Shown here in pieces: positions 11,449-20,955 of a stretch of DNA of 20,955 nt. The first letter of the stretch is position 1. Every line of letters begins with the position of its first letter. This DNA comes from Elusimicrobiota bacterium. GTDB lineage: Bacteria; Elusimicrobiota; Elusimicrobia; UBA1565. The position numbers and the translations under genes are program-made. The notes under the pieces were generated by a model that was not told the DNA's origin, ran no database searches, and saw nothing but the letters and a program-made list of their open reading frames with translations. The stretch lies in NCBI GenBank assembly GCA_043819795.1, contig JBDREN010000117.1:1-20955 (forward strand), in the 5' to 3' direction.

Positions 11449-13914
11449 ATGAAGACACTGACCATTCGCTCGGCAAAACAGATCTTGGCAGCGACACTCT
11501 GCCTGGGACTGATCCTCTCAGTCCCGTCTTCTTCAGCCTTCGCGAGTCCCGCCGCCCGCGCCGTGGCGGTCAAGGCTCCGGTCGGCGTTTCCCAAGCCGG
11601 GATCGCCGGCGCCGCGATCCAGCAGGTGCTCGCCGTTCCTATCGGCGGCCTCGCCAAACCGCTATCCTCGAACCTCGGCTCCCGGCTCGCGGCCCCGCAG
11701 CTCAAGCCCGTGATCTACTCACGCCTCACCCCGCTGGCAAGACCGGCCGCGGTCACGCCCGCCCCGCTCGATAGGGACGCCGCTGTCCAGGCCCTCGAGC
11801 GCCACCCGATCATCGGGATCGTCAACGAGGTCCAGAACGCCGGAGGGGACGCATTGCTCGGCAAGCTGGGAACGGCCACAGACGCCGCCCAGGTCCGGGC
11901 CGTGGCCGAAGCCCTGCCCGCGGGCGCGGCGAGAAATAGTATCGAGGCCCTGGCCGGGGCGCTGTCGCTCCCCGAAGGCGCGGAGCGGACCTCGGCCCTG
12001 AACTCGCTCTACGAGAACACCGCGGCCTCCTACCGGACGGCGGATCTGATGCCCGCGGTCAAGGCCTCAGAGGCGGCCGGCGTGTGGGCCCGGATCGCGC
12101 GCGCCAAGTCCCGTCTGCTGCCCGCGGGCCTCAAACGCTACGCGGCCGATCGCGCCGAGCAGCGGAGAGCCAAGGCCCCCTTGATCGATACGGCCAAGCT
12201 GAAGATCCCGACGGCCCGGCTGCGCTGGGTCCCCGACGCCAAGGACCTTCCGGGGAGCACGCGGGAGATCAAAGACGGCGAGACGGCGATCGTCGGCCAG
12301 GACCGGGCTCTAAAGTCCCTGGAGTTCGGCCTCAAGTACACCGGCAAAGGCAGCGACGTGGTCGTCACGGGCCCCGATGGCTCGGGCCGCAAGACCGCCA
12401 TCAGGCAGCTGCTCAAGCGGATCGCCCCCACGATGAAGACCCCGCCGGACATCATCTCAGTCACCGATCTTAAGGAGAAGGGAGCGCCCGACATCATCGC
12501 GGTCGAGGCGGGCTCGGGCGCCAAAGTCAAGGCCGCCATGGACGCCGAGCGCTACAAGGTCGAGATATTGATCGACAACTCGGGCAAGAAGGGAGCGCCG
12601 GTGGTGTTCGAGAAGTCCCCCTCCGTCAAGAGCCTCGTGGGCGCCGCGCTGCGAGCCAACGGCGGCTTCCTGGTGGTGGACGTGATGGACCTCCTGAAGG
12701 AGCAGGGAGCCTATCAGGCCCTGATGCAGATCATCCGCGACGGCCGGATCGCGGTGGCCGCCGGGCGCGGCGAGAGCTACGCGATCCCGGTCCGGTTCAA
12801 GACCGTTCTCACGGCGGCCCCGGCGGTGAAAGCCCTGCTGGCGGAGAAGGACCCCGGATTCACAACCACCTTCGGGACGTCCGCCGAGTTCGAGAAGTCG
12901 ATAGGGATCGGCGGGGATACCGTCGCCGCCTACCTCGCCTTCATGAAACGCACGATCGCCCAGAGCGCCGGCGAGATCCTCGACATGGCGCGCGGGGCCA
13001 TCGCCGGAGCCCTGGAGTACGCCGCGCGCATAGCCGAGAGCAACCAGAAGCTCTCCGCCAGCTTCGGCCCGGTCGCGGAGCTGATGAGCGAGGCCTCGTT
13101 CTGGGCCAAGGAGTCCGGCCGCGGCGAGGTCACCCGCGAGGACGTGGACAAGGCGGTCTCCGAGCGCAGCGAGCGCAGCGGGGCGATGAGGCGCCACGTC
13201 CTGGAGTACTACAGCTCCGATATCTTCCGCGTGGACATCGAGGGCTCGCAGGTCGGCCAGATCAACGGCCTGGCCGTGATGGGCGATTTCGGGGTGCCCA
13301 CCCGGATCACCTTCGCTCCCTACGCGAAGCCGGGCAGCGATTTCGTGGTGTCCGCCGACGAACGCGCCGAGAGCGCCGGCAAGCACTTCAAGAAGTCTCT
13401 CGGGGTGATCAAGGGCTTCATCGGCAGGACGTTCGGGATCAAGCGCGCGATCCCGGTGGAGGTCTCCATCTCCTTCGAGCAGAACTACGGGGGCATCGAC
13501 GGCGACTCGGCCACGCAGACCATGATCTACGGCACGCTTTCGGCCCTGTCGGGAGTGGGGATCAAGCAGGGCATCGCGATCACGGGCTCCGCCGACCAAA
13601 GCGGGAACGTCCAGGTCATCGGCGGCGTGAACCACAAGATCGAGGGCTACTTCGACGTGGCCCGCGAGAAGCTCCGCCGCGAGGGCAAGGAGATGACCGG
13701 CGAGCAGGGAATCATCATCCCGGCCGGCAACATCCGCGACCTGACGCTGCGCCCGGACATCGTGCAGGCCGTGCGCGAGGGCAAGTTCAACATCTGGGCC
13801 GTGGAGCACGTCAGCCAGGGAACGGAGATCCTGACCGGCCAGCCCTACTCCGAGGTCATCCGGAAGGCCGAAGCCTATATCGGCGACGTCCGCGCTAACG
13901 GCGCCAGCAGCTAA
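11449..13914 (+). CDS. LonC/LonB-like S16 protease with N-terminal signal peptide and Ala-rich extension
   Basis: 821 aa, RBS GAGG. Sec-like leader MKTLTIRSAKQILAATLCLGLILSVPSSSAFA. LonC-type motifs VGQDRA, GAPVVFE, RANGGFL, GQINGL and SFEQNYGGIDGDSA (Ser at 13507); Lys in GGVNHKIEG (13636), 43 residues later. Confidence 0.88.
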   Translation: MKTLTIRSAKQILAATLCLGLILSVPSSSAFASPAARAVAVKAPVGVSQAGIAGAAIQQVLAVPIGGLAKPLSSNLGSRLAAPQLKPVIYSRLTPLARPAAVTPAPLDRDAAVQALERHPIIGIVNEVQNAGGDALLGKLGTATDAAQVRAVAEALPAGAARNSIEALAGALSLPEGAERTSALNSLYENTAASYRTADLMPAVKASEAAGVWARIARAKSRLLPAGLKRYAADRAEQRRAKAPLIDTAKLKIPTARLRWVPDAKDLPGSTREIKDGETAIVGQDRALKSLEFGLKYTGKGSDVVVTGPDGSGRKTAIRQLLKRIAPTMKTPPDIISVTDLKEKGAPDIIAVEAGSGAKVKAAMDAERYKVEILIDNSGKKGAPVVFEKSPSVKSLVGAALRANGGFLVVDVMDLLKEQGAYQALMQIIRDGRIAVAAGRGESYAIPVRFKTVLTAAPAVKALLAEKDPGFTTTFGTSAEFEKSIGIGGDTVAAYLAFMKRTIAQSAGEILDMARGAIAGALEYAARIAESNQKLSASFGPVAELMSEASFWAKESGRGEVTREDVDKAVSERSERSGAMRRHVLEYYSSDIFRVDIEGSQVGQINGLAVMGDFGVPTRITFAPYAKPGSDFVVSADERAESAGKHFKKSLGVIKGFIGRTFGIKRAIPVEVSISFEQNYGGIDGDSATQTMIYGTLSALSGVGIKQGIAITGSADQSGNVQVIGGVNHKIEGYFDVAREKLRREGKEMTGEQGIIIPAGNIRDLTLRPDIVQAVREGKFNIWAVEHVSQGTEILTGQPYSEVIRKAEAYIGDVRANGASS

Positions 13915-14908: not shown

Positions 14909-14983
14909 TCCGGCGTAGCTCAATGGTAGAGCATCCGGCTGTTAACCGGAGGGTTGCTGGTTCGAGTCCAGCCGCCGGAGCCA
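14909..14983 (+). tRNA. tRNA-Asn (anticodon GTT) with encoded CCA
   Basis: Acceptor TCCGGCG/CGCCGGA, D-arm GCTC..GAGC, anticodon stem TCCGG/CCGGA with GTT at 14941-14943, T-arm GCTGG-TTCGAGT-CCAGC, then G-CCA. Confidence 0.97.
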
Positions 14984-16612
14984 CCTTGTACCTAGCGGGT
15001 AACCATGCCCTTGGGCCGCTAGAAGTTCGGTGGGAACCTTACAGAGGGGTTTCTCGTCGAGAACCGGGGTCCTTTTGGACCCCGGTTTTTGCTTGGGTAA
15101 GGCTGTTAACGGAAGGGTAAAAACGACTTTTGCCTCGACCTTGCTGCTCACCGTGATTTCCCTTACAAGGCACTGCATCAGCAGCCGTTTCCGGCTTGCT
15201 CTCCAACTTTCAAACCGATCCAGAGCCTTCAGCAAGGTCCCCGAGATCTGCTCGGCCTTGGCGTCCTTTCCGGCCAGGTCCTGCAGCCGGGAATCGAGGC
15301 TTTTCAGCTTTCCCCGCAACGCCTTGGCCCTGCCGATCGACTCCTCGATCTCCCGACTCACTTCCTCCGAGACTTCCTTGCTGGGGAGGTTCTCGACCAT
15401 CCACCGGACCTTATCGGCCTTCGAGCGCTCGGCGGCCTCCAACTGCTTCTGAAGGACGTTGCGCTCGCCGGCCAGCCGCTTGGCCGCGCCACGGCCTTCC
15501 TCGCGGTGCTTGCGAAGATACTGCTCGATCACCTCGGGGTGCTGGGCGATCTCCCGAATCTCGCGGGACACGGCCGCTTCAAGGGGCCGGGCCGGGACGT
15601 ACTCCATGTCGCAGCCGCCCTCGCTCCTCCGTGACGCGCAGGCGTAGTAATACTTCCCTTTCCCCTTGCCGGTCGTCATCTTGCGCCCGCAACGCCCGCA
15701 TTTGACCAAGCCGGTCAGGATATTCGGGCTGTGGAGCGCTTCGCCGGATATTGCCGTCCTCGACTTGAGGATTTCCTGTACTCGCTGAAAAAGGTCCTCG
15801 CTGATAAGGGCCTCGTGCCGGGCCTTGACCGGCTTCCCGTCCAAGATCATGAACCCGGCGTAGACGGGATTGGTCAGCATCTGCCAGACCGTGGTGTTAT
15901 GCCAACCCTTCTTCCAGCGGCGGGAGGTCTTATCCTCTCCCCGCAGGGTCTTGGCGATCAGCTTGACCCCCAGGTTCTCCTCGGTCAGAAGCCGGAAGAC
16001 GCGCCGGACAAAGGGCGCTTCTTCAGGCCTAACCTCAAGCACACCTTCCTTTGAGACCCGGTAGCCGAAGGGCGGAAGGCCGTTCCATTTCCCCTCTTTC
16101 AAGCGGCGATGAAGCCCCATGCGTGTTCGCTCACCGATCAGCTCCCGCTCGAACTGCGCGAAGGAGCCCAGCATGTTGAACAGGAGCTTGCCGGGAGGCG
16201 TCGTTGTATCGAAGGGCTCGGTGATGGACCGGATGCCGACGCCGATCCGCTCGAACATTTCTCCCAGCGGGACGAGATCGCTCAGTTTACGGGAAAATCG
16301 GTCGAGCTTGAAGACCAGAACGAGGTCAAACTTCTTTTTCCTGGCGTCCTCCAAAAGGCGCTGCATAGCCGGGCGCTTGAGGTCCTTCCCCGAGTAGCCG
16401 TCGTCCACATAGGGCGGCAGGCAATCCCATTTATGAAACTTCGCCGTGGCCTCCAGCTTCTCGATCTGGGCGGCGATGGAGTAGCCCGACTTCGCCTGTT
16501 CCTCGGTGGAAACCCGGACATAGGCCGCCGCGCGGAGGGGCCGCTTGTCCTCGGATTCGCTCTGGAGACGCTTGCGAAAGGATATCGGGGAACGGCGTTT
16601 ACGGGGGGCCAT
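14942..16612 (-). CDS. Large serine recombinase (integrase)
   Basis: 556 aa. Catalytic YVRVSTEEQ, DDGYSGKDLKRP, FKLDRFSR, FAQFERELIGER; recombinase domain (LTNPVYAG); Zn ribbon CGRCG...YYAC...C; coiled coil. Stop codon lies inside tRNA-Asn. Confidence 0.95.
   Translation of the reverse strand: MAPRKRRSPISFRKRLQSESEDKRPLRAAAYVRVSTEEQAKSGYSIAAQIEKLEATAKFHKWDCLPPYVDDGYSGKDLKRPAMQRLLEDARKKKFDLVLVFKLDRFSRKLSDLVPLGEMFERIGVGIRSITEPFDTTTPPGKLLFNMLGSFAQFERELIGERTRMGLHRRLKEGKWNGLPPFGYRVSKEGVLEVRPEEAPFVRRVFRLLTEENLGVKLIAKTLRGEDKTSRRWKKGWHNTTVWQMLTNPVYAGFMILDGKPVKARHEALISEDLFQRVQEILKSRTAISGEALHSPNILTGLVKCGRCGRKMTTGKGKGKYYYACASRRSEGGCDMEYVPARPLEAAVSREIREIAQHPEVIEQYLRKHREEGRGAAKRLAGERNVLQKQLEAAERSKADKVRWMVENLPSKEVSEEVSREIEESIGRAKALRGKLKSLDSRLQDLAGKDAKAEQISGTLLKALDRFESWRASRKRLLMQCLVREITVSSKVEAKVVFTLPLTALPKQKPGSKRTPVLDEKPLCKVPTELLAAQGHGYPLGTRWLRRLDSNQQPSG
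15062..15090 (+). terminator. Rho-independent terminator downstream of tRNA-Asn
   Basis: AACCGGGGTCC-tttt-GGACCCCGGTT followed by a T run; lies inside the antisense integrase CDS. Confidence 0.75.
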
Positions 16613-16617
16613 AGGCG

Positions 16618-17217
16618 TTACCGTTTCCGTTTCTTGAGTGGAGGATAGATTGATCGCATGTTCTTTAGAAGGTCGTCGCTGGAATCCACGAACGTCTTGA
16701 AGGTGACCGCAGCGTTCGCGATCGGGAGCGGATTGGATTCAAGCAGATCTTGCGAGTCCGTCAGGCATGAAATGAAGGTCTTTGCAAAGTAATGAAGGGC
16801 CCGGCCGTCCTTCTGGCTAAAAGCGATGTCGTACTCTGCGTAGCGGCTCCTAAGAAGTTCCTCGAACGGACGCGCCTCGTCATAGTCAACCTCGGCATTT
16901 TCGACGAACCATTTGTATGCCTCGCGGTGGAGCAGGTCCATCCCTTTTGAATGGGCGGAATCGCTTGAATAATGCTTTCGAGAGAGGCGGGTCGTCAGAT
17001 GCATATAGGCCATGAGCAATTCGCGGATCAGTTCGTTCGGTTTGACTTCTGAGTCGACTAGTTCCCGGAAACCCTCGAAGTCCCGGGCGATTTCGCCCTG
17101 AATCAAATCGTTGATCCAATGGACCATGGCGGTTTCGAAGGAGCGCACTTCCGGCTCGATCCAACCGAAAGATTTGAGCCAACTTCTCAGGACCCCCAGC
17201 ACGCCCCCCTTTGCCAA
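16618..17217 (-). CDS. Hypothetical all-alpha protein
   Basis: 199 aa, TTG start (true start uncertain). Packed with 4-5 nt gaps between the HTH gene and the integrase; natural protein-like composition. Confidence 0.7.
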   Translation of the reverse strand: MAKGGVLGVLRSWLKSFGWIEPEVRSFETAMVHWINDLIQGEIARDFEGFRELVDSEVKPNELIRELLMAYMHLTTRLSRKHYSSDSAHSKGMDLLHREAYKWFVENAEVDYDEARPFEELLRSRYAEYDIAFSQKDGRALHYFAKTFISCLTDSQDLLESNPLPIANAAVTFKTFVDSSDDLLKNMRSIYPPLKKRKR

Positions 17218-17221
17218 TGGA

Positions 17222-17779
17222 TTACCGCTCCGGATCCGTAGTTTTGCCCCGGACCTCCGCGAATGCCTTTGCGTCCTCTTCCCGAATCAGCGACAGCCGG
17301 CCCAAACGCCGCGCGCGCAGACGCCCGGTCCGGATCGCCTTGCGGACTCCCTCGCGGGTGCACCCGGCCATTTCCGCGACTTGTCCGGTCGTCATTTCCA
17401 GGTTCTCCCCTCCTTCGGGGTCGTCGCTTTCAACGACTTCTCCACGCAGGAGGTAGCCCTGTCCGATCCCAAGACGCTTTCCCATGTCCTCGCAGACCCG
17501 ATAGAGGGTCGTCTCATCGACCGGCTTTCCCAGCCGCTTGGCACGCGCATAAAGCGGCGCGGAGGGCTCCAAATAGAGGTTCTCGAAGTCCAGATAGCTG
17601 ACGCCTTCCTTCACCCTTTTCGACAGGCGTCCGAGGAATCTGCGCTCCTCGGCCGTCAGCTTCGCCAAGGGGAGCTGCTTGCCTTCCAACGTCGTATAAG
17701 CGTTTCTGTATGCCACTTCCGAAAGTCCCGCATCCAGTATAGCAGGAAAGTTTGTGTCTAGCAACCCGTTGGTTTGCAT
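17222..17779 (-). CDS. Protein with C-terminal excisionase-like (HTH_17) DNA-binding domain
   Basis: 185 aa from MQTNGLLD, RBS GGAGG upstream (17790-17794). C-terminal MTTGQVAEMAGCTREGVRKAIRTGRLRARRLGRLSLIREED fits the Xis-like winged HTH pattern. Confidence 0.8.
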   Translation of the reverse strand: MQTNGLLDTNFPAILDAGLSEVAYRNAYTTLEGKQLPLAKLTAEERRFLGRLSKRVKEGVSYLDFENLYLEPSAPLYARAKRLGKPVDETTLYRVCEDMGKRLGIGQGYLLRGEVVESDDPEGGENLEMTTGQVAEMAGCTREGVRKAIRTGRLRARRLGRLSLIREEDAKAFAEVRGKTTDPER

Positions 17780-17913: not shown

Positions 17914-18702
17914 CTAGGCCCTGCGGTAGAACGTCATGGTTTGTCCCGGTTCCGGGCCGACAAAAGGACACTTTCTCGGGTCCGCGCGGAAGGACGCCAG
18001 GCTCCCGGCGCGAACGCGATGAGCCCTGAATCGTTGCGCGAACCGGCACAACCGCGTCATCCCTCCGGGCCAGCCCGCCAGATAAAGCACGAGGCCCCGG
18101 CACGGCATACACTCATCATATACTTCCCACAACTTCCGGTATCTTCCCCGCGATTTCTGGGTCAACTCCACTTCAACGGCTTTCGGCACGTCACCGTCCA
18201 CGACCCAGAGATCGGAAAGAACCAGGCTTCTCATTCGCGCCAGGTTCCTGACGTTCATTTTTTCACTAATCCTCTCGAGCTCCGACCTCACGTCGAGCCC
18301 CAGAATCTCGCGCATTGTTAGTCCCACGGCGTTTACCGTCACTTCATGACGCACCAAAGCAGGGGAGATCGACCTTCGGAAACTCGGGGATCGCGCTCGG
18401 CCGAACATCGTCAAAGTCTTATGCCCGAACGACGTAATGCAATAGAGCTTGGGAAAGTTCACGAAGGACACTTTTCTTATTAGCCCAGCCTTTTCGAGCT
18501 TCAAGAGACGCTTATACGCATACCCGACATACACCGCCGAATCCGTCTCATTGAAAAACAGCTTGGTCCTCTCATCACTCTCCAATTCCCGGCTGAACAC
18601 CAGGCCGTCTATTTGTCCAAGCCCCAAGATACCCCAATATTCCAATCCAGACAGAACAGCCAGATCATGCTTCCCGATCTTAACAGGACATTTCTTCTTC
18701 AC
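17914..18702 (-). CDS. Replication-relaxation (Replic_Relax)-like protein: wHTH plus PD-(D/E)XK-like domain
   Basis: 262 aa. YKRLLKLEKAGLI...LYCITSFG (wHTH), RHEVTV, SDLWV...AVEVELTQKSRGRYRK match the family pattern (H..., PD..., AxExE). Confidence 0.75.
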   Translation of the reverse strand: MKKKCPVKIGKHDLAVLSGLEYWGILGLGQIDGLVFSRELESDERTKLFFNETDSAVYVGYAYKRLLKLEKAGLIRKVSFVNFPKLYCITSFGHKTLTMFGRARSPSFRRSISPALVRHEVTVNAVGLTMREILGLDVRSELERISEKMNVRNLARMRSLVLSDLWVVDGDVPKAVEVELTQKSRGRYRKLWEVYDECMPCRGLVLYLAGWPGGMTRLCRFAQRFRAHRVRAGSLASFRADPRKCPFVGPEPGQTMTFYRRA

Positions 18703-18805
18703 CCTTCCCCCATTTACACCTATTATCTTCAGAATTCAGCTTGCAGCACCTCACAAACCACATGCCGCACCTGCATCTCCTTCCAGATCCGTCTCCGCCC
18801 CCCGC

Positions 18806-18857
18806 CTTCCCGACCCCGGCACCACAACCTTCTGGTTGAGGGGGCGGGGTCGGGAAG
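18806..18857. repeat. Long inverted repeat/hairpin upstream of the Replic_Relax-like gene
   Basis: CTTCCCGACCCCG (18806-18818) pairs with CGGGGTCGGGAAG (18845-18857); inner stem CAACC-ttct-GGTTG (18825-18838). Confidence 0.75.
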
Positions 18858-18984
18858 CGCACAGGCTGAAAGCCGAAGCGAGGGGGGCCGAAAAGATACG
18901 CAGAAACCAACCATTCCCGGTGCGGCATACCAAACTCTTGGTGTCTGGACCACCAGACATCCTGACCGATACTCTGGAAACGCA

Positions 18985-19230
18985 TCAAACGTCCCCCCCA
19001 ACGGGCTCGTCGTCGGCCTTATGGTTCTTCGCCACAAAGGAGATGGCGTAGCCGATGACGCGGTCGCGGTCCGTCTCCTTGCCCGTCTCGCTCATGAGCT
19101 TGAGCTGCAATTTCCCAAGGTCCCTGACCTCCGCGAGGGTCAAAGAGACCCTAAGCAGGATCTTTTTGGGCTGTCGCCCCCGGGTTTTTGCCCCGTCGAG
19201 CGGCGGAGAATTGGTTTCGTTCTCGTTCAT
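18985..19230 (-). CDS. Small putative ribbon-helix-helix-like DNA-binding protein
   Basis: 81 aa with strong RBS (GGAGG-cttaa-ATG). Basic segment, beta strand LLRVSL, then two helices (LAEVRDLGKLQ...; RDRVIGYAISF). Confidence 0.65.
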   Translation of the reverse strand: MNENETNSPPLDGAKTRGRQPKKILLRVSLTLAEVRDLGKLQLKLMSETGKETDRDRVIGYAISFVAKNHKADDEPVGGDV

Positions 19231-19377
19231 TTAAGCCTCCGGTCCGACTTTTTTTGCGGCCTGGGGGCCGCACAATTACAATACCGGCGTCCCGCGATTT
19301 CTTGCCGCGGCCGGGCTGGATAATCGTACGGCAGAACAATGATCGTCGTCGGGAAAACAGAGCTCCCACTTCGATTT

Positions 19378-19427: not shown

Positions 19428-20141
19428 ATGGATTCGGAATACCGCGCCCTACTGGAGAAGCAGGACTGGCGCAGGATTCACCGCGATCTGGTGCATTTTG
19501 CCCGCACCTTGGCCGTCTCAGGCAAGCTGTGGGCCGGCGGCACACGTCGCTTTTCGGGGGGCGAGGAGCCTATGCTGGCCGACGGATGCACTCCTCGGGA
19601 TGTCGTTCATCAGGTGATTTCGCAGACCTTCGAGGGGCAGGGTCAATGGAAATGGGACCCCGAGAGGAGCGCCGACATCCGCGTACATCTTAAATGGCGC
19701 ATCAGAAGCAAGCTCTCGACCTTGGTGGAGAAGGACGACAATCGCAAGAGGATCCCGGTCCCAAAGGATGAGCACGGAGCGGAACGGTTCGATTGGCTGA
19801 AAGCGCCGAGGGGAATGACGAAGGGCTTGGCCGAAGATGGGGTCGGCGATCATTCGGAGGAAGATTATTCCGTGGATCTCCTCGATCGGCTGTCCACTCA
19901 GTGCCTGGCCGATCATCCGGGGGGCGACGATTTTACCGCGCACCTGGAGAAAGGACTTGGCGACGATCCGCGTCTTCAGGATGTCCTCACCCACATATGC
20001 AACGGAACGCCCCCCCGCAGGATGGCCGATGCTATGGGAATATCCGTCAGAGAAGTCAACAATTTGATGAAGCGTTTGAAACGCAGGTCGCGTCAAATCA
20101 TGCGACCTGATGTCCCAATCCAGGGGAAAGCCAATGCCTAA
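19428..20141 (+). CDS. Sigma-70/ECF-like protein
   Basis: 237 aa from MDSEYRALL. Region-2-like segment (DVVHQVISQTFEG...WDPERSADIRVHLKWRIRSKL) and region-4-like HTH (PPRRMADAMGISVREVNNLMKRLKRR). Confidence 0.72.
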   Translation: MDSEYRALLEKQDWRRIHRDLVHFARTLAVSGKLWAGGTRRFSGGEEPMLADGCTPRDVVHQVISQTFEGQGQWKWDPERSADIRVHLKWRIRSKLSTLVEKDDNRKRIPVPKDEHGAERFDWLKAPRGMTKGLAEDGVGDHSEEDYSVDLLDRLSTQCLADHPGGDDFTAHLEKGLGDDPRLQDVLTHICNGTPPRRMADAMGISVREVNNLMKRLKRRSRQIMRPDVPIQGKANA

Positions 20142-20955
20142 ACAGAGCGACAGAGACAAAGCTCTTTTCGAGCATCTTCGGTACTGGGAAGTGAAGGACG
20201 ACGAACGTGTTCGGCAAGAGCTGAAGGCTGCCGGCTACGATCCCGACGCTCTCGAAGTAGAGGGTGAGGAATTCGTGCGAGGCCTTCTTGCAGAGGACGA
20301 CGCGCAAAGAAGAGAATCCCTCGCGCGCCGGTTCAAAGAGACCGAGCGCCTTGCGGACGAGGCGGATTCGCAGGAATTCGAGGCGCCGGAGGACCTAGCC
20401 AAGGCCATAACCGACATACTGGCCGCAAAGACGGGCGAGGGCTCCCGGCAGCAGCCCCGCGCCTTTTGGCGTAATTTCGATAAGGCATCCCGCGAGGATC
20501 AAATCCGGATTCTTAAGGATATCCGTCTCCTGAAGGCCTTGCAGCGGAAGGATGAAAGCGGCTGCGAAAAGCCTGATGCCAAGACGGTGCAAGCAGCCGA
20601 TCAGGCCCGCCAGGTCCTGGCAGAGTTGTCCGTCTCCCACCCTGGAGAAGAGTCCATCCGCGACTTAGCCTGCGCGCGGGGAGCCCTCGTGCGCGAGGGG
20701 CCGATGCAGGGCGCGGAGAGCTGGATGGTCAAGATGGGCCGACACGGACTAATTCGCGTCCGCGAGTCGATACCGGAAGATACCCGCAAGCGCTACGATA
20801 TCGCCCACGAACTCGGGCACTTTGAGCTGCATTCCGAGGCCGACCAACTCGGCTTGTGCCTCGACGCGGAACTGGCGGCGGCCTATAGATCCAAGAACGC
20901 CGAGGAGATTGAAGCCCACGCCTTCGCCAACGAATTCCTGCTTCCGGAAAAGCTG
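20134..20955 (+). CDS. ImmA/IrrE (DUF955/M78) metallopeptidase with a ~140-aa helical N-terminal domain; 3'-truncated by the window edge
   Basis: Hand translation is open for 274 codons from ATG 20134, which overlaps the sigma-like stop: MPKQSDRDKALFEHLRYWE...RKRYDIAHELGHFELH...EEIEAHAFANEFLLPEKL. HEXXH at 20806-20820. Absent from the ORF track because it has no stop in the window. Confidence 0.85.
   Translation, partial: MPKQSDRDKALFEHLRYWEVKDDERVRQELKAAGYDPDALEVEGEEFVRGLLAEDDAQRRESLARRFKETERLADEADSQEFEAPEDLAKAITDILAAKTGEGSRQQPRAFWRNFDKASREDQIRILKDIRLLKALQRKDESGCEKPDAKTVQAADQARQVLAELSVSHPGEESIRDLACARGALVREGPMQGAESWMVKMGRHGLIRVRESIPEDTRKRYDIAHELGHFELHSEADQLGLCLDAELAAAYRSKNAEEIEAHAFANEFLLPEKL

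Follow-up and report, generated by a model that had tools for sequence, protein, structure and literature searches.

A sigma factor gene overlapping a fused reading frame

The stretch analyzed here, called the window, is the 20,955-nucleotide (nt) contig JBDREN010000117.1 of an Elusimicrobiota bacterium (assembly GCA_043819795.1), and it ends in a sigma-like gene followed by an open reading frame (ORF) that joins a helical domain to a peptidase. The sigma ORF at 19428-20141(+) encodes 237 amino acids (aa) and overlaps by 8 nt (ATGCCTAA) the second ORF, which starts at 20134(+), stays open for 274 codons and runs off the contig end, where the window also ends. The pair lies within a low-GC stretch (0.59 vs 0.67) that begins at tRNA-Asn. 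We think it probable that the locus is the fused form of a widespread three-gene module and that this module is a DNA-damage switch, in which a CapP peptidase activated by single-stranded DNA (ssDNA) would cut an anti-sigma factor and so free the sigma factor. A preliminary description of the sequence had already reported the overlap and the union of a helical domain with an ImmA/IrrE-type peptidase in one ORF; both held, and all the motifs that it quoted were located in the fused ORF (ELKAAGYDPDAL; AFWRNF at residue 110; RKRYDIAHELGH at 218; EEIEAH at 257).

The window sigma alone gave no significant Pfam or NCBIfam match (best E 0.05-0.1), word-indexed protein searches with the sigma and the fusion returned only self-matches, and a plasmid search with a sigma homologue as the query gave zero matches. 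Its identity was judged from the family profile and the fold rather than from family matches of its own sequence. A library search (HMMER) collected 207 homologues; among the 150 that were aligned, 46 matched Sigma70_r2 and 21 matched Sigma70_r4_2 in Pfam (E<=0.01), and the family profile matched the SigH structure 3mzy (E 9.4e-10). The AlphaFold (AF2) model of the window sigma (pLDDT 82.9) aligned by VIA-align with region 4 (3vep, Z 8.0, rmsd 1.9, 63 residues) and region 2 (5uxx, Z 7.8, rmsd 3.1, 82 residues) of sigma factors with extracytoplasmic function (ECF). At the top, a Foldseek search with this model listed only sigma factors, none of which reached E 0.001. ECF (group 4) factors consist of sigma2 and sigma4 domains only, in ~200 aa, and the protein agrees with this build; the overlapping ORF with its predicted sigma binding takes the place of a co-transcribed downstream anti-sigma gene. 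As judged from profile and fold, 19428-20141 encodes a sigma factor of the ECF fold with regions 2 and 4, the two folds on which the preliminary description had made its sigma assignment depend. One sigma relative (L044:9642-10268, G200) overlaps a 67-aa excisionase-like helix-turn-helix (HTH) gene in place of an anti-sigma gene.

The peptidase matched Pfam Peptidase_M78 (E 1.3e-10) and, over residues 153-273, PADLOC capP (E 3.6e-16). Because the capP match begins at residue 153 with profile position 4, ~150 residues precede the normal CapP start. In profile comparison the domain was much nearer to CapP (structure 7t5t, E 6e-25) than to IrrE (E 1e-4). When aligned with Thauera CapP, H225-E226-x-x-H229, E258, the cysteine switch C242, the acidic E246 and R220, the equivalent of E. 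coli R90, were all kept; the roles of these residues in CapP are set out in 10.64898/2026.05.16.725639. The domain thus shows the HEXXH motif, distal Glu and cysteine switch loop of a CapP-type M78 peptidase and, by this alignment, retains the catalytic, Zn and cysteine-switch residues and one ssDNA-binding residue. An R220 equivalent occurs in 42 of 46 peptidases of the family and the switch cysteine in 45 of 46. The profile of the split relatives described below covers 7t5t 13-281, including the central HTH and C-terminal GAF domains. The fused protein is incomplete at its 3′ end, 45 full-length relatives extending 129-162 residues further, and its missing C-terminus (HTH and GAF parts) was sought in the rest of the assembly and not found.

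Split relatives and the small-protein domain

Species genomes yielded 113 matches to a degenerate DNA pattern for the sigma region-2 motif, and metagenomes at least 119; flanks were examined at 80 loci from species genomes, 80 from metagenomes and 7 from the window's phylum. The pattern samples under half of the sigma family (68/150 in a looser form), so that the following counts are not frequencies for the whole family. CapP lay at most 500 nt downstream on the same strand in 55 of 89 sigma ORFs (score >=50, >=1400 nt of downstream sequence), a few duplicate loci included. With short contigs, 60 triad modules (58 distinct) were recovered, and in 60/60 a separate gene of 128-155 aa stood between sigma and CapP, as the preliminary description had suggested for similar loci; in 12 of them the small-protein and CapP genes share a reading frame. 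The hosts include Anaerolineae, other Chloroflexi, Desulfobacterales, Geobacteraceae, Phycisphaerales, Rhodothermales, Ignavibacteriota, Kofleriaceae, Verrucomicrobia, Binatia, Hydrogenedentota and Patescibacteria, and more distant triads were found on two plasmids of cultured strains. By sequence, the split triad occurs in many phyla. The small-protein profile matched in 6 of 401 genomes from the window's phylum, and only the window's match is fused to CapP; the closest relative (G382), from the same family as the window host, carries a split triad facing a ubiquitin-like operon.

A 397-aa frame at L147 resembled a second fusion and was rejected, since the small gene there is separate and ends in a stop codon. 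In viral contigs, no relative of the fusion was found, 0 of 80 CapP-pattern loci carried this sigma, and the 1 pattern match was not a sigma hit. In a divergent subfamily (L010:7587-12191, G258; P0161-P0183), which shows the tail motif LAARKG and has one member from a named species, Rhodanobacter glycinis, the E2-E1 and JAB genes follow downstream of CapP and are not divergent from the module.

With all relatives split, an assembly or sequencing error might mask two genes in the window, and the junction does hold an out-of-frame ATG in a GATGCC context that serves two close relatives as the CapP start. The check across the junction consisted of one low-depth contig of another variant, not raw reads. 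From the public run X1, a single contig (360 nt, depth 3.2) aligned over 20505-20864 with 97% identity, 10 differing letters and 0 gaps, and it spans the fusion junction without indels. Eight of the differences are listed, all within 20732-20833 and 5 of them synonymous, and two are unlisted. The X1 contig is thus a different variant that keeps the same single frame. An error common to two separate assemblies is unlikely, and we regard this explanation as highly improbable; as far as one contig can test it, the fusion is not an assembly frameshift, and at the junction, where the preliminary description had asked for a lost stop codon to be excluded, the second contig keeps the single frame.

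The small-protein family has two conserved ends, as seen in an alignment of 59 homologues of the window N-terminal domain. At the N-terminal end, the profile of the L-x3-G-x-D segment did not match the HTHs of 22 canonical CapH proteins, collected at CapP loci in Pseudomonadota genomes and on two plasmids (prob 0.4%). No XRE/HTH_3 family was among the 25 top Pfam families shown for the 59 homologues, and the N-terminal XRE helix-turn-helix of CapH was not found in the window domain, in agreement with the preliminary description. The model of the domain has two short helices and one 42-residue helix. Net charge is negative in 58 of the 59 members (median -10), a composition unlike that of a DNA binder. 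A zinc motif, as carried by some of the three- to four-helix class I anti-sigma domains (RseA/ZAS type), is absent from the domain, the small proteins having a median of 1 Cys plus His in their first 65 residues; sequence searches of the PDB with the domain gave no anti-sigma or CapH match, and a structure search was filled by the long helix (coiled-coil rows only, best Z 6.1). An Atlas feature search returned unnamed clusters of 129-148 aa at 0.81, which we take as a lead only.

The complex of the window sigma with residues 1-142, each supplied with a 59-row paired alignment, was predicted with a score of 0.75 against 0.00 for the best of three controls; the pass mark is reached by 116 of 157 solved pairs and 2 of 215 mismatched pairs. 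Runs agreed in at least 50% of contacts, the partner pLDDT was at least 67, and the contacts joined N-domain residues 17-55 with sigma residues 1-89 (region 2). Residues 17-55 are thus predicted to bind sigma region 2, which supports the earlier suggestion that the domain is a sigma inhibitor. A domain swap points the same way independently of the complex model. At sigma genes without CapP (21 cases, being 23 minus two duplicates of triad loci), 17 of the 21 downstream proteins share this N-terminal segment at their start (pairwise E<1e-4); in 11, a hydrophobic segment at residues 80-135 and then a large domain follow, which is how membrane anti-sigmas are laid out. A head shared with other tails is thus indicated by sequence comparison. 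The membrane partners with this head (L041:8383-10254 of G178, L129, L130, L144, L145, L163, L167, L182, L198, L271 and L318) are apparently an unnamed ECF/anti-sigma group with varied large domains as exchangeable inputs. At L135 and L249, the sigma is followed by an 86-97 aa protein with the head and neither tail nor CapP; the L135 sigma is split in two frames.

At the C-terminal end, the tail profile matched the tails of the 22 canonical CapH proteins (prob 83.7%, E 8e-6), with a score of 25.2 against a best of 11.1 in 100 column shuffles. ssDNA-stimulated CapP cleaves CapH between F82 and R83 (10.1101/2022.04.27.489752). W112-R113 of the window aligns with the FFR motif of the family, in which R is present in 53/59 and F in 42/59. 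The domain thus carries the C-terminal two-helix tail and F|R-type site of CapH, and the F-R motif, which ranks with the best conserved columns of the small proteins, is missing, by inspection, in the partners of CapP-less sigmas. The preliminary description had set the domain apart from CapH substrates; this holds for the absent HTH but not for the tail, where the CapH cleavage-site motif is retained.

Promoter-like motif, neighboring operons and the integrative element

When 45 of the 58 upstream regions were searched for shared motifs, the result was TGGC(A/G)AA(A/T)(A/T)-N12-CGG(T/C)A (consensus form TGGCAAAAA-N12-CGGTA), with a log-likelihood of 319 compared with 112 and 100 in two shuffles. 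A single spacer length was kept in 37 of 42 sites. The motif faced the neighboring operon at 39 of 45 loci and the sigma gene at 29 of 45 (leave-one-out p<=0.02), and back-to-back copies form an inverted repeat. It reached at most 10.8 bits at all 22 canonical XRE-CapH loci and 16-25 bits upstream of 7 CapP-less sigma genes; by these sequence scores, its presence therefore goes with the sigma and with neither the peptidase nor the tail. Of all sites on both strands of the window, 19308-19281(-) scores best, with 15.6 bits, a score reached in 3 of 1000 shuffles, and it ends 50 nt before a divergent 81-aa gene.

These observations also bear on whether the helical domain could be a divergent CapH-like repressor that binds the motif by an unrecognized fold, with the sigma as an accessory. 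The inverted repeat could be an operator, Lau et al. count such genes as capH beside sigma, the capH model matches most of the window domain (residues 49-139, E 0.15), and the first 40 residues are weakly similar to Arg-repressor (E 0.009). Nevertheless, the N-terminal profile does not match the CapH HTH, the domain is strongly acidic and is predicted to bind the sigma, and the motif is present with CapP-less sigmas whose partners have no tail and absent at XRE-CapH loci. Its two blocks are held at a fixed spacing, as in ECF promoters. We consider a repressor improbable.

Up to three divergent genes were surveyed at each of 40 loci (89 of 97 extracted proteins; 5 near-duplicate loci were skipped). 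CBASS genes were found at 12 (11 CD-NTase and 1 HNH-SAVED effector) and ubiquitin-like genes (E1/ThiF, E2, JAB or BilD) at 14, so that 26 of 40 annotated neighbors are defense operons of these two kinds; the remainder were 3 Tn7 tnsABC, 2 TIR, 1 type IIG restriction-modification (RM), 1 AlbA_2 and 7 with nothing relevant. Genes downstream of the triads have no fixed partner, with PADLOC matches (E<=1e-25) in 10 of 70 proteins, mostly RM. At L143, L177 and L195 (and, by ORF sizes, L149 and L174), in Desulfobacterota-type hosts, the triad and motif face tnsA-tnsB-tnsC, which suggests damage-induced transposition. In Malonomonas rubra, the operon that the triad faces includes a lexA gene (L152:5384-6022), a possible link to the SOS response.

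In the window, the module adjoins the backbone of an integrative element (Table 1). Homologues of the 81-aa gene were found in 15 of 100 genomes of the order, a Rep/relaxase gene lay behind the homologue in 8 of 9 loci examined, and no sigma module was found within the 1.5 kb examined at these loci. By this comparison, the window module occupies the place of another backbone gene in related elements, and its predicted outward promoter points into the element. The element family of the order (L404-L412, L045) has a ribbon-helix-helix-like gene, then ~560 nt and a Replic_Relax-like gene, and is present in two copies in several genomes. One of its members carries a 98-aa sigma-family fragment between type I RM and Rep genes (L045:6654-6950, G308). 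The window recombinase has its last 13 codons and stop (14942-14983) within the tRNA-Asn gene, on the reverse strand, and because of this overlap its C-terminus would differ between the integrated and excised forms. A copy of attR was sought in the genome and not found. The ~280 nt between the 81-aa and Rep genes show strong GC skew and inverted repeats (18729-18950), a candidate origin of replication or transfer. Further upstream, 11449-13914 encodes a Lon-like AAA protein of 821 aa whose N-terminus, judged by eye from the translation, is long, Ala-rich and similar to a signal peptide.

Table 1. Features of the window, listed by position
Feature	Position	Strand	Basis
tRNA-Asn, likely integration site	14909..14983	+	GC falls 0.67 to 0.59 beyond tRNA
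Large serine recombinase	14942..16612	-	Resolvase, Recombinase, Zn_ribbon_recom (Pfam)
199-aa element protein, no family match	16618..17217	-	ORF
Excisionase-family (HTH_17) protein	17222..17776	-	Pfam HTH_17 E 4.6e-7; TIGR01764 E 6.7e-9
Replication-relaxation (PF13814-like) protein	17914..18702	-	Atlas feature score 0.97; structure TM 0.76 to Replic_Relax clusters
81-aa backbone gene, likely ribbon-helix-helix DNA binder (sequence pattern only), first behind predicted promoter	18985..19230	-	GGAGG before ATG
Predicted promoter of sigma, GGCAAGAA-N12-CCGGTAT, pointing away from sigma gene	19281..19308	-	Motif matrix
Sigma factor of ECF type (group 4), from an unnamed family having G-x-R-x-W-D-P in region 2	19428..20141	+	Homologues, profile, fold
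Fused anti-sigma-like domain and CapP peptidase, 274 aa present, ~405-435 aa expected	20134..20955	+	ORF, relatives
Predicted sigma-binding helices, residues 17-55, L-x3-G-x-D-P motif	20182..20298	+	Predicted complex; same segment in CapP-less partners
CapH-like tail, predicted cleavage site W112|R113 (CapH F82|R83)	20455..20535	+	Profile-profile match
CapP (M78) peptidase domain	20590..20955	+	Pfam, PADLOC, 7t5t profile match, residue alignment

The setting raises the alternative that the triad works in relatives while the window copy is an orphan, created by a recent stop-loss, with its defense cargo lost and its promoter facing the backbone by accident. The fusion occurs at one locus against 60 split modules and would be an easy accident, because 12 of the 60 already have both genes in one frame. 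Eight related element loci have no sigma module before the 81-aa gene and a motif of at most 11.9 bits there; the related element G308 keeps only its sigma fragment, and the window has an atypical W112 and a weak promoter of its own. However, the catalytic residues and the outward promoter site are all intact, the second variant preserves the frame with 5 of 8 listed differences synonymous, CapH-CapP fusions are known (15/408 systems), and mobility genes can be targets, since at 3 of the 40 annotated loci the module lies opposite tnsABC. We regard an orphan as unlikely, although it has a real chance of being correct.

Proposed switch and comparison with known systems

In the switch that we favor, the N-terminal helices would hold the sigma inactive at rest, as the complex model predicts. 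By analogy with CapP, ssDNA from damage or phage replication would open the cysteine switch and activate the peptidase, and a cut at W112|R113 would take off the tail. The cut would then free the sigma, which we infer and consider the weakest step. Release could proceed through loss of tail-mediated dimerization, as in CapH, or through breakdown of residues 1-112 starting at the end that the cut creates. RseA-type membrane anti-sigmas are degraded from the new end after regulated proteolysis. Through the two-block promoters, the free sigma would transcribe the divergent operon as well as, in most relatives, the operon to which it belongs. Relatives would in this way turn on CBASS, Bub/Bil or Tn7 operons, whereas the targets in the window would be the 81-aa gene and possibly the Rep/relaxase and excisionase genes. 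The fusion would fix a 1:1 ratio, and the cut, made in cis or between two molecules, would detach the peptidase from its substrate and leave it free. Among the outcomes that the preliminary description had considered, activation of the neighboring operon is supported, and abortive toxicity of the sigma itself is not. None of the results that it had named beforehand as contradicting it (a standard XRE repressor, no interaction with the sigma, two separate genes, missing sigma folds) was obtained in these computational tests, and its proposal is supported.

Several observations weigh against such a switch. The cut site lies ~55 residues beyond the predicted interface, which the cut would not obviously break; release would therefore probably need a tail-loss effect or fragment degradation. 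CapP has been modeled contacting the CapH HTH through its GAF domain (10.64898/2026.05.16.725639), and the small protein has no such HTH; because the contig ends, the GAF domain of the window peptidase is missing from the assembly. The complex pass may partly come from likeness to solved sigma/anti-sigma complexes, which are well represented among solved structures. The PADLOC capH model matches 23 of 59 small-protein members (best E 2.8e-8), which is not independent support because the model may itself contain such proteins. Compared as single sequences, the tail matched Thauera CapH weakly (prob 1.6%), and W at the P1 position is found in the window only (1/59). The window motif facing the sigma gene has 7.8 bits and is not significant (108/1000 shuffles), and genome-wide the motif is unspecific, with 112 sites above 13 bits among which the window's site ranks 18th. 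Finally, no defense operon adjoins the window module, whose divergent genes are the element backbone; cargo could lie beyond the contig end.

The distance between cut site and interface also favors an anti-sigma domain whose peptidase has another relevant target, such as the sigma itself or a cargo protein, and the ssDNA-binding GAF residues lie beyond the contig end, so that the signal might differ from ssDNA. On the other hand, the F-R motif is well conserved in the small proteins and missing in the partners of CapP-less sigmas, and the R220 equivalent and the switch cysteine are kept in nearly all peptidases (42/46 and 45/46). We give this version of the module little credence.

A broader formulation, which we advance tentatively and with some doubt, is that M78/CapP peptidases have a second output, the cutting of a soluble anti-sigma with a new sigma-binding domain and a CapH tail, and that this releases a dedicated ECF sigma and gives CBASS, Bub/Bil and Tn7 in at least nine phyla a positive switch that is triggered by ssDNA and amplifies itself, the window being the end point, a single self-cleaving anti-sigma-protease rewired to the replication and excision genes of an integrative element. 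The damage sensors beside immune operons that are known to us (CapW, CapH/CapP, CapK/CapS) all act by lifting repression. If true, the module would represent an activating, positive-feedback design with soluble one-step anti-sigma proteolysis, and it would offer a testable answer to the possible silence of many CBASS and Bub/Bil operons cloned without their neighbors. A promoter consensus and a cut site are named, and one anti-sigma head appears to take exchangeable input domains, a membrane sensor or a CapH tail. Such a small set of sigma, anti-sigma and protease, equipped with a promoter of its own, could then serve as a portable DNA-damage reporter. The window itself adds the fusion and the mobility-facing promoter, both from one truncated locus.

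In a CBASS survey, 24 of 408 systems had capH and capP beside a predicted sigma-70 and 15 of 408 had capH-capP fusions (Lau et al. 2022, 10.1101/2022.04.27.489752); the accessible part of that paper gives the sigma-containing systems one sentence and no mechanism, and both groups may bear on the novelty of the family and the fusion. CapH and CapP occur in 168 of 544 Bub operons, and no sigma factor is mentioned in the accessible part of the report (PMC11601596). In the accessible parts of PMC13373217, PMC11601596 and PMC7593790, M78 peptidases are described only with repressors. A literature search, whose coverage largely left out subscription journals, found no M78 peptidase that cleaves an anti-sigma.

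The module shares with CapH and CapP a cysteine-switch peptidase, a substrate gene directly upstream with an F-R tail, a position divergent from CBASS or Bub operons in relatives, and known substrate-peptidase fusions (Lau et al. 2022; Calloji et al. 2026, 10.64898/2026.05.16.725639). It differs in its proposed substrate, which is without an XRE HTH and predicted to bind a sigma, and in its output, which would be activation by a dedicated sigma acting at its own promoter, not derepression. ImmA/ImmR of ICEBs1 and IrrE/DdrO of Deinococcus likewise use an M78 peptidase to cleave a regulator after DNA damage, and the control of ICEBs1 mobilization by ImmA/ImmR (10.64898/2026.05.16.725639) resembles what the window's layout suggests. 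However, their substrates are HTH repressors, IrrE is described in the accessible text of the same source as having no cysteine switch, and the window profile is nearer CapP than IrrE. The DdvS/DdvA pair of Myxococcus xanthus (PMC11506125) is an ECF/anti-sigma pair over a CBASS-containing (CBASS-CRISPR) defense island for which proteolytic release is proposed, and its anti-sigma is fused to a protease domain, as here. DdvA is transmembrane, with a CHCC zinc anti-sigma domain and a periplasmic TPR-CHAT part, whereas the window anti-sigma is predicted to be soluble, without Cys/His clusters and with a cytoplasmic M78 peptidase. CapK and CapS (PMC13373217) likewise control adjacent immune operons in response to ssDNA and are made of parts from sigma regulation, but they consist of a kinase and a STAS-winged-HTH repressor, and the accessible text of that report describes neither a sigma factor nor a peptidase for them. 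Overall, the module is like CapH/CapP on its input side and like an ECF/anti-sigma pair on its output side.

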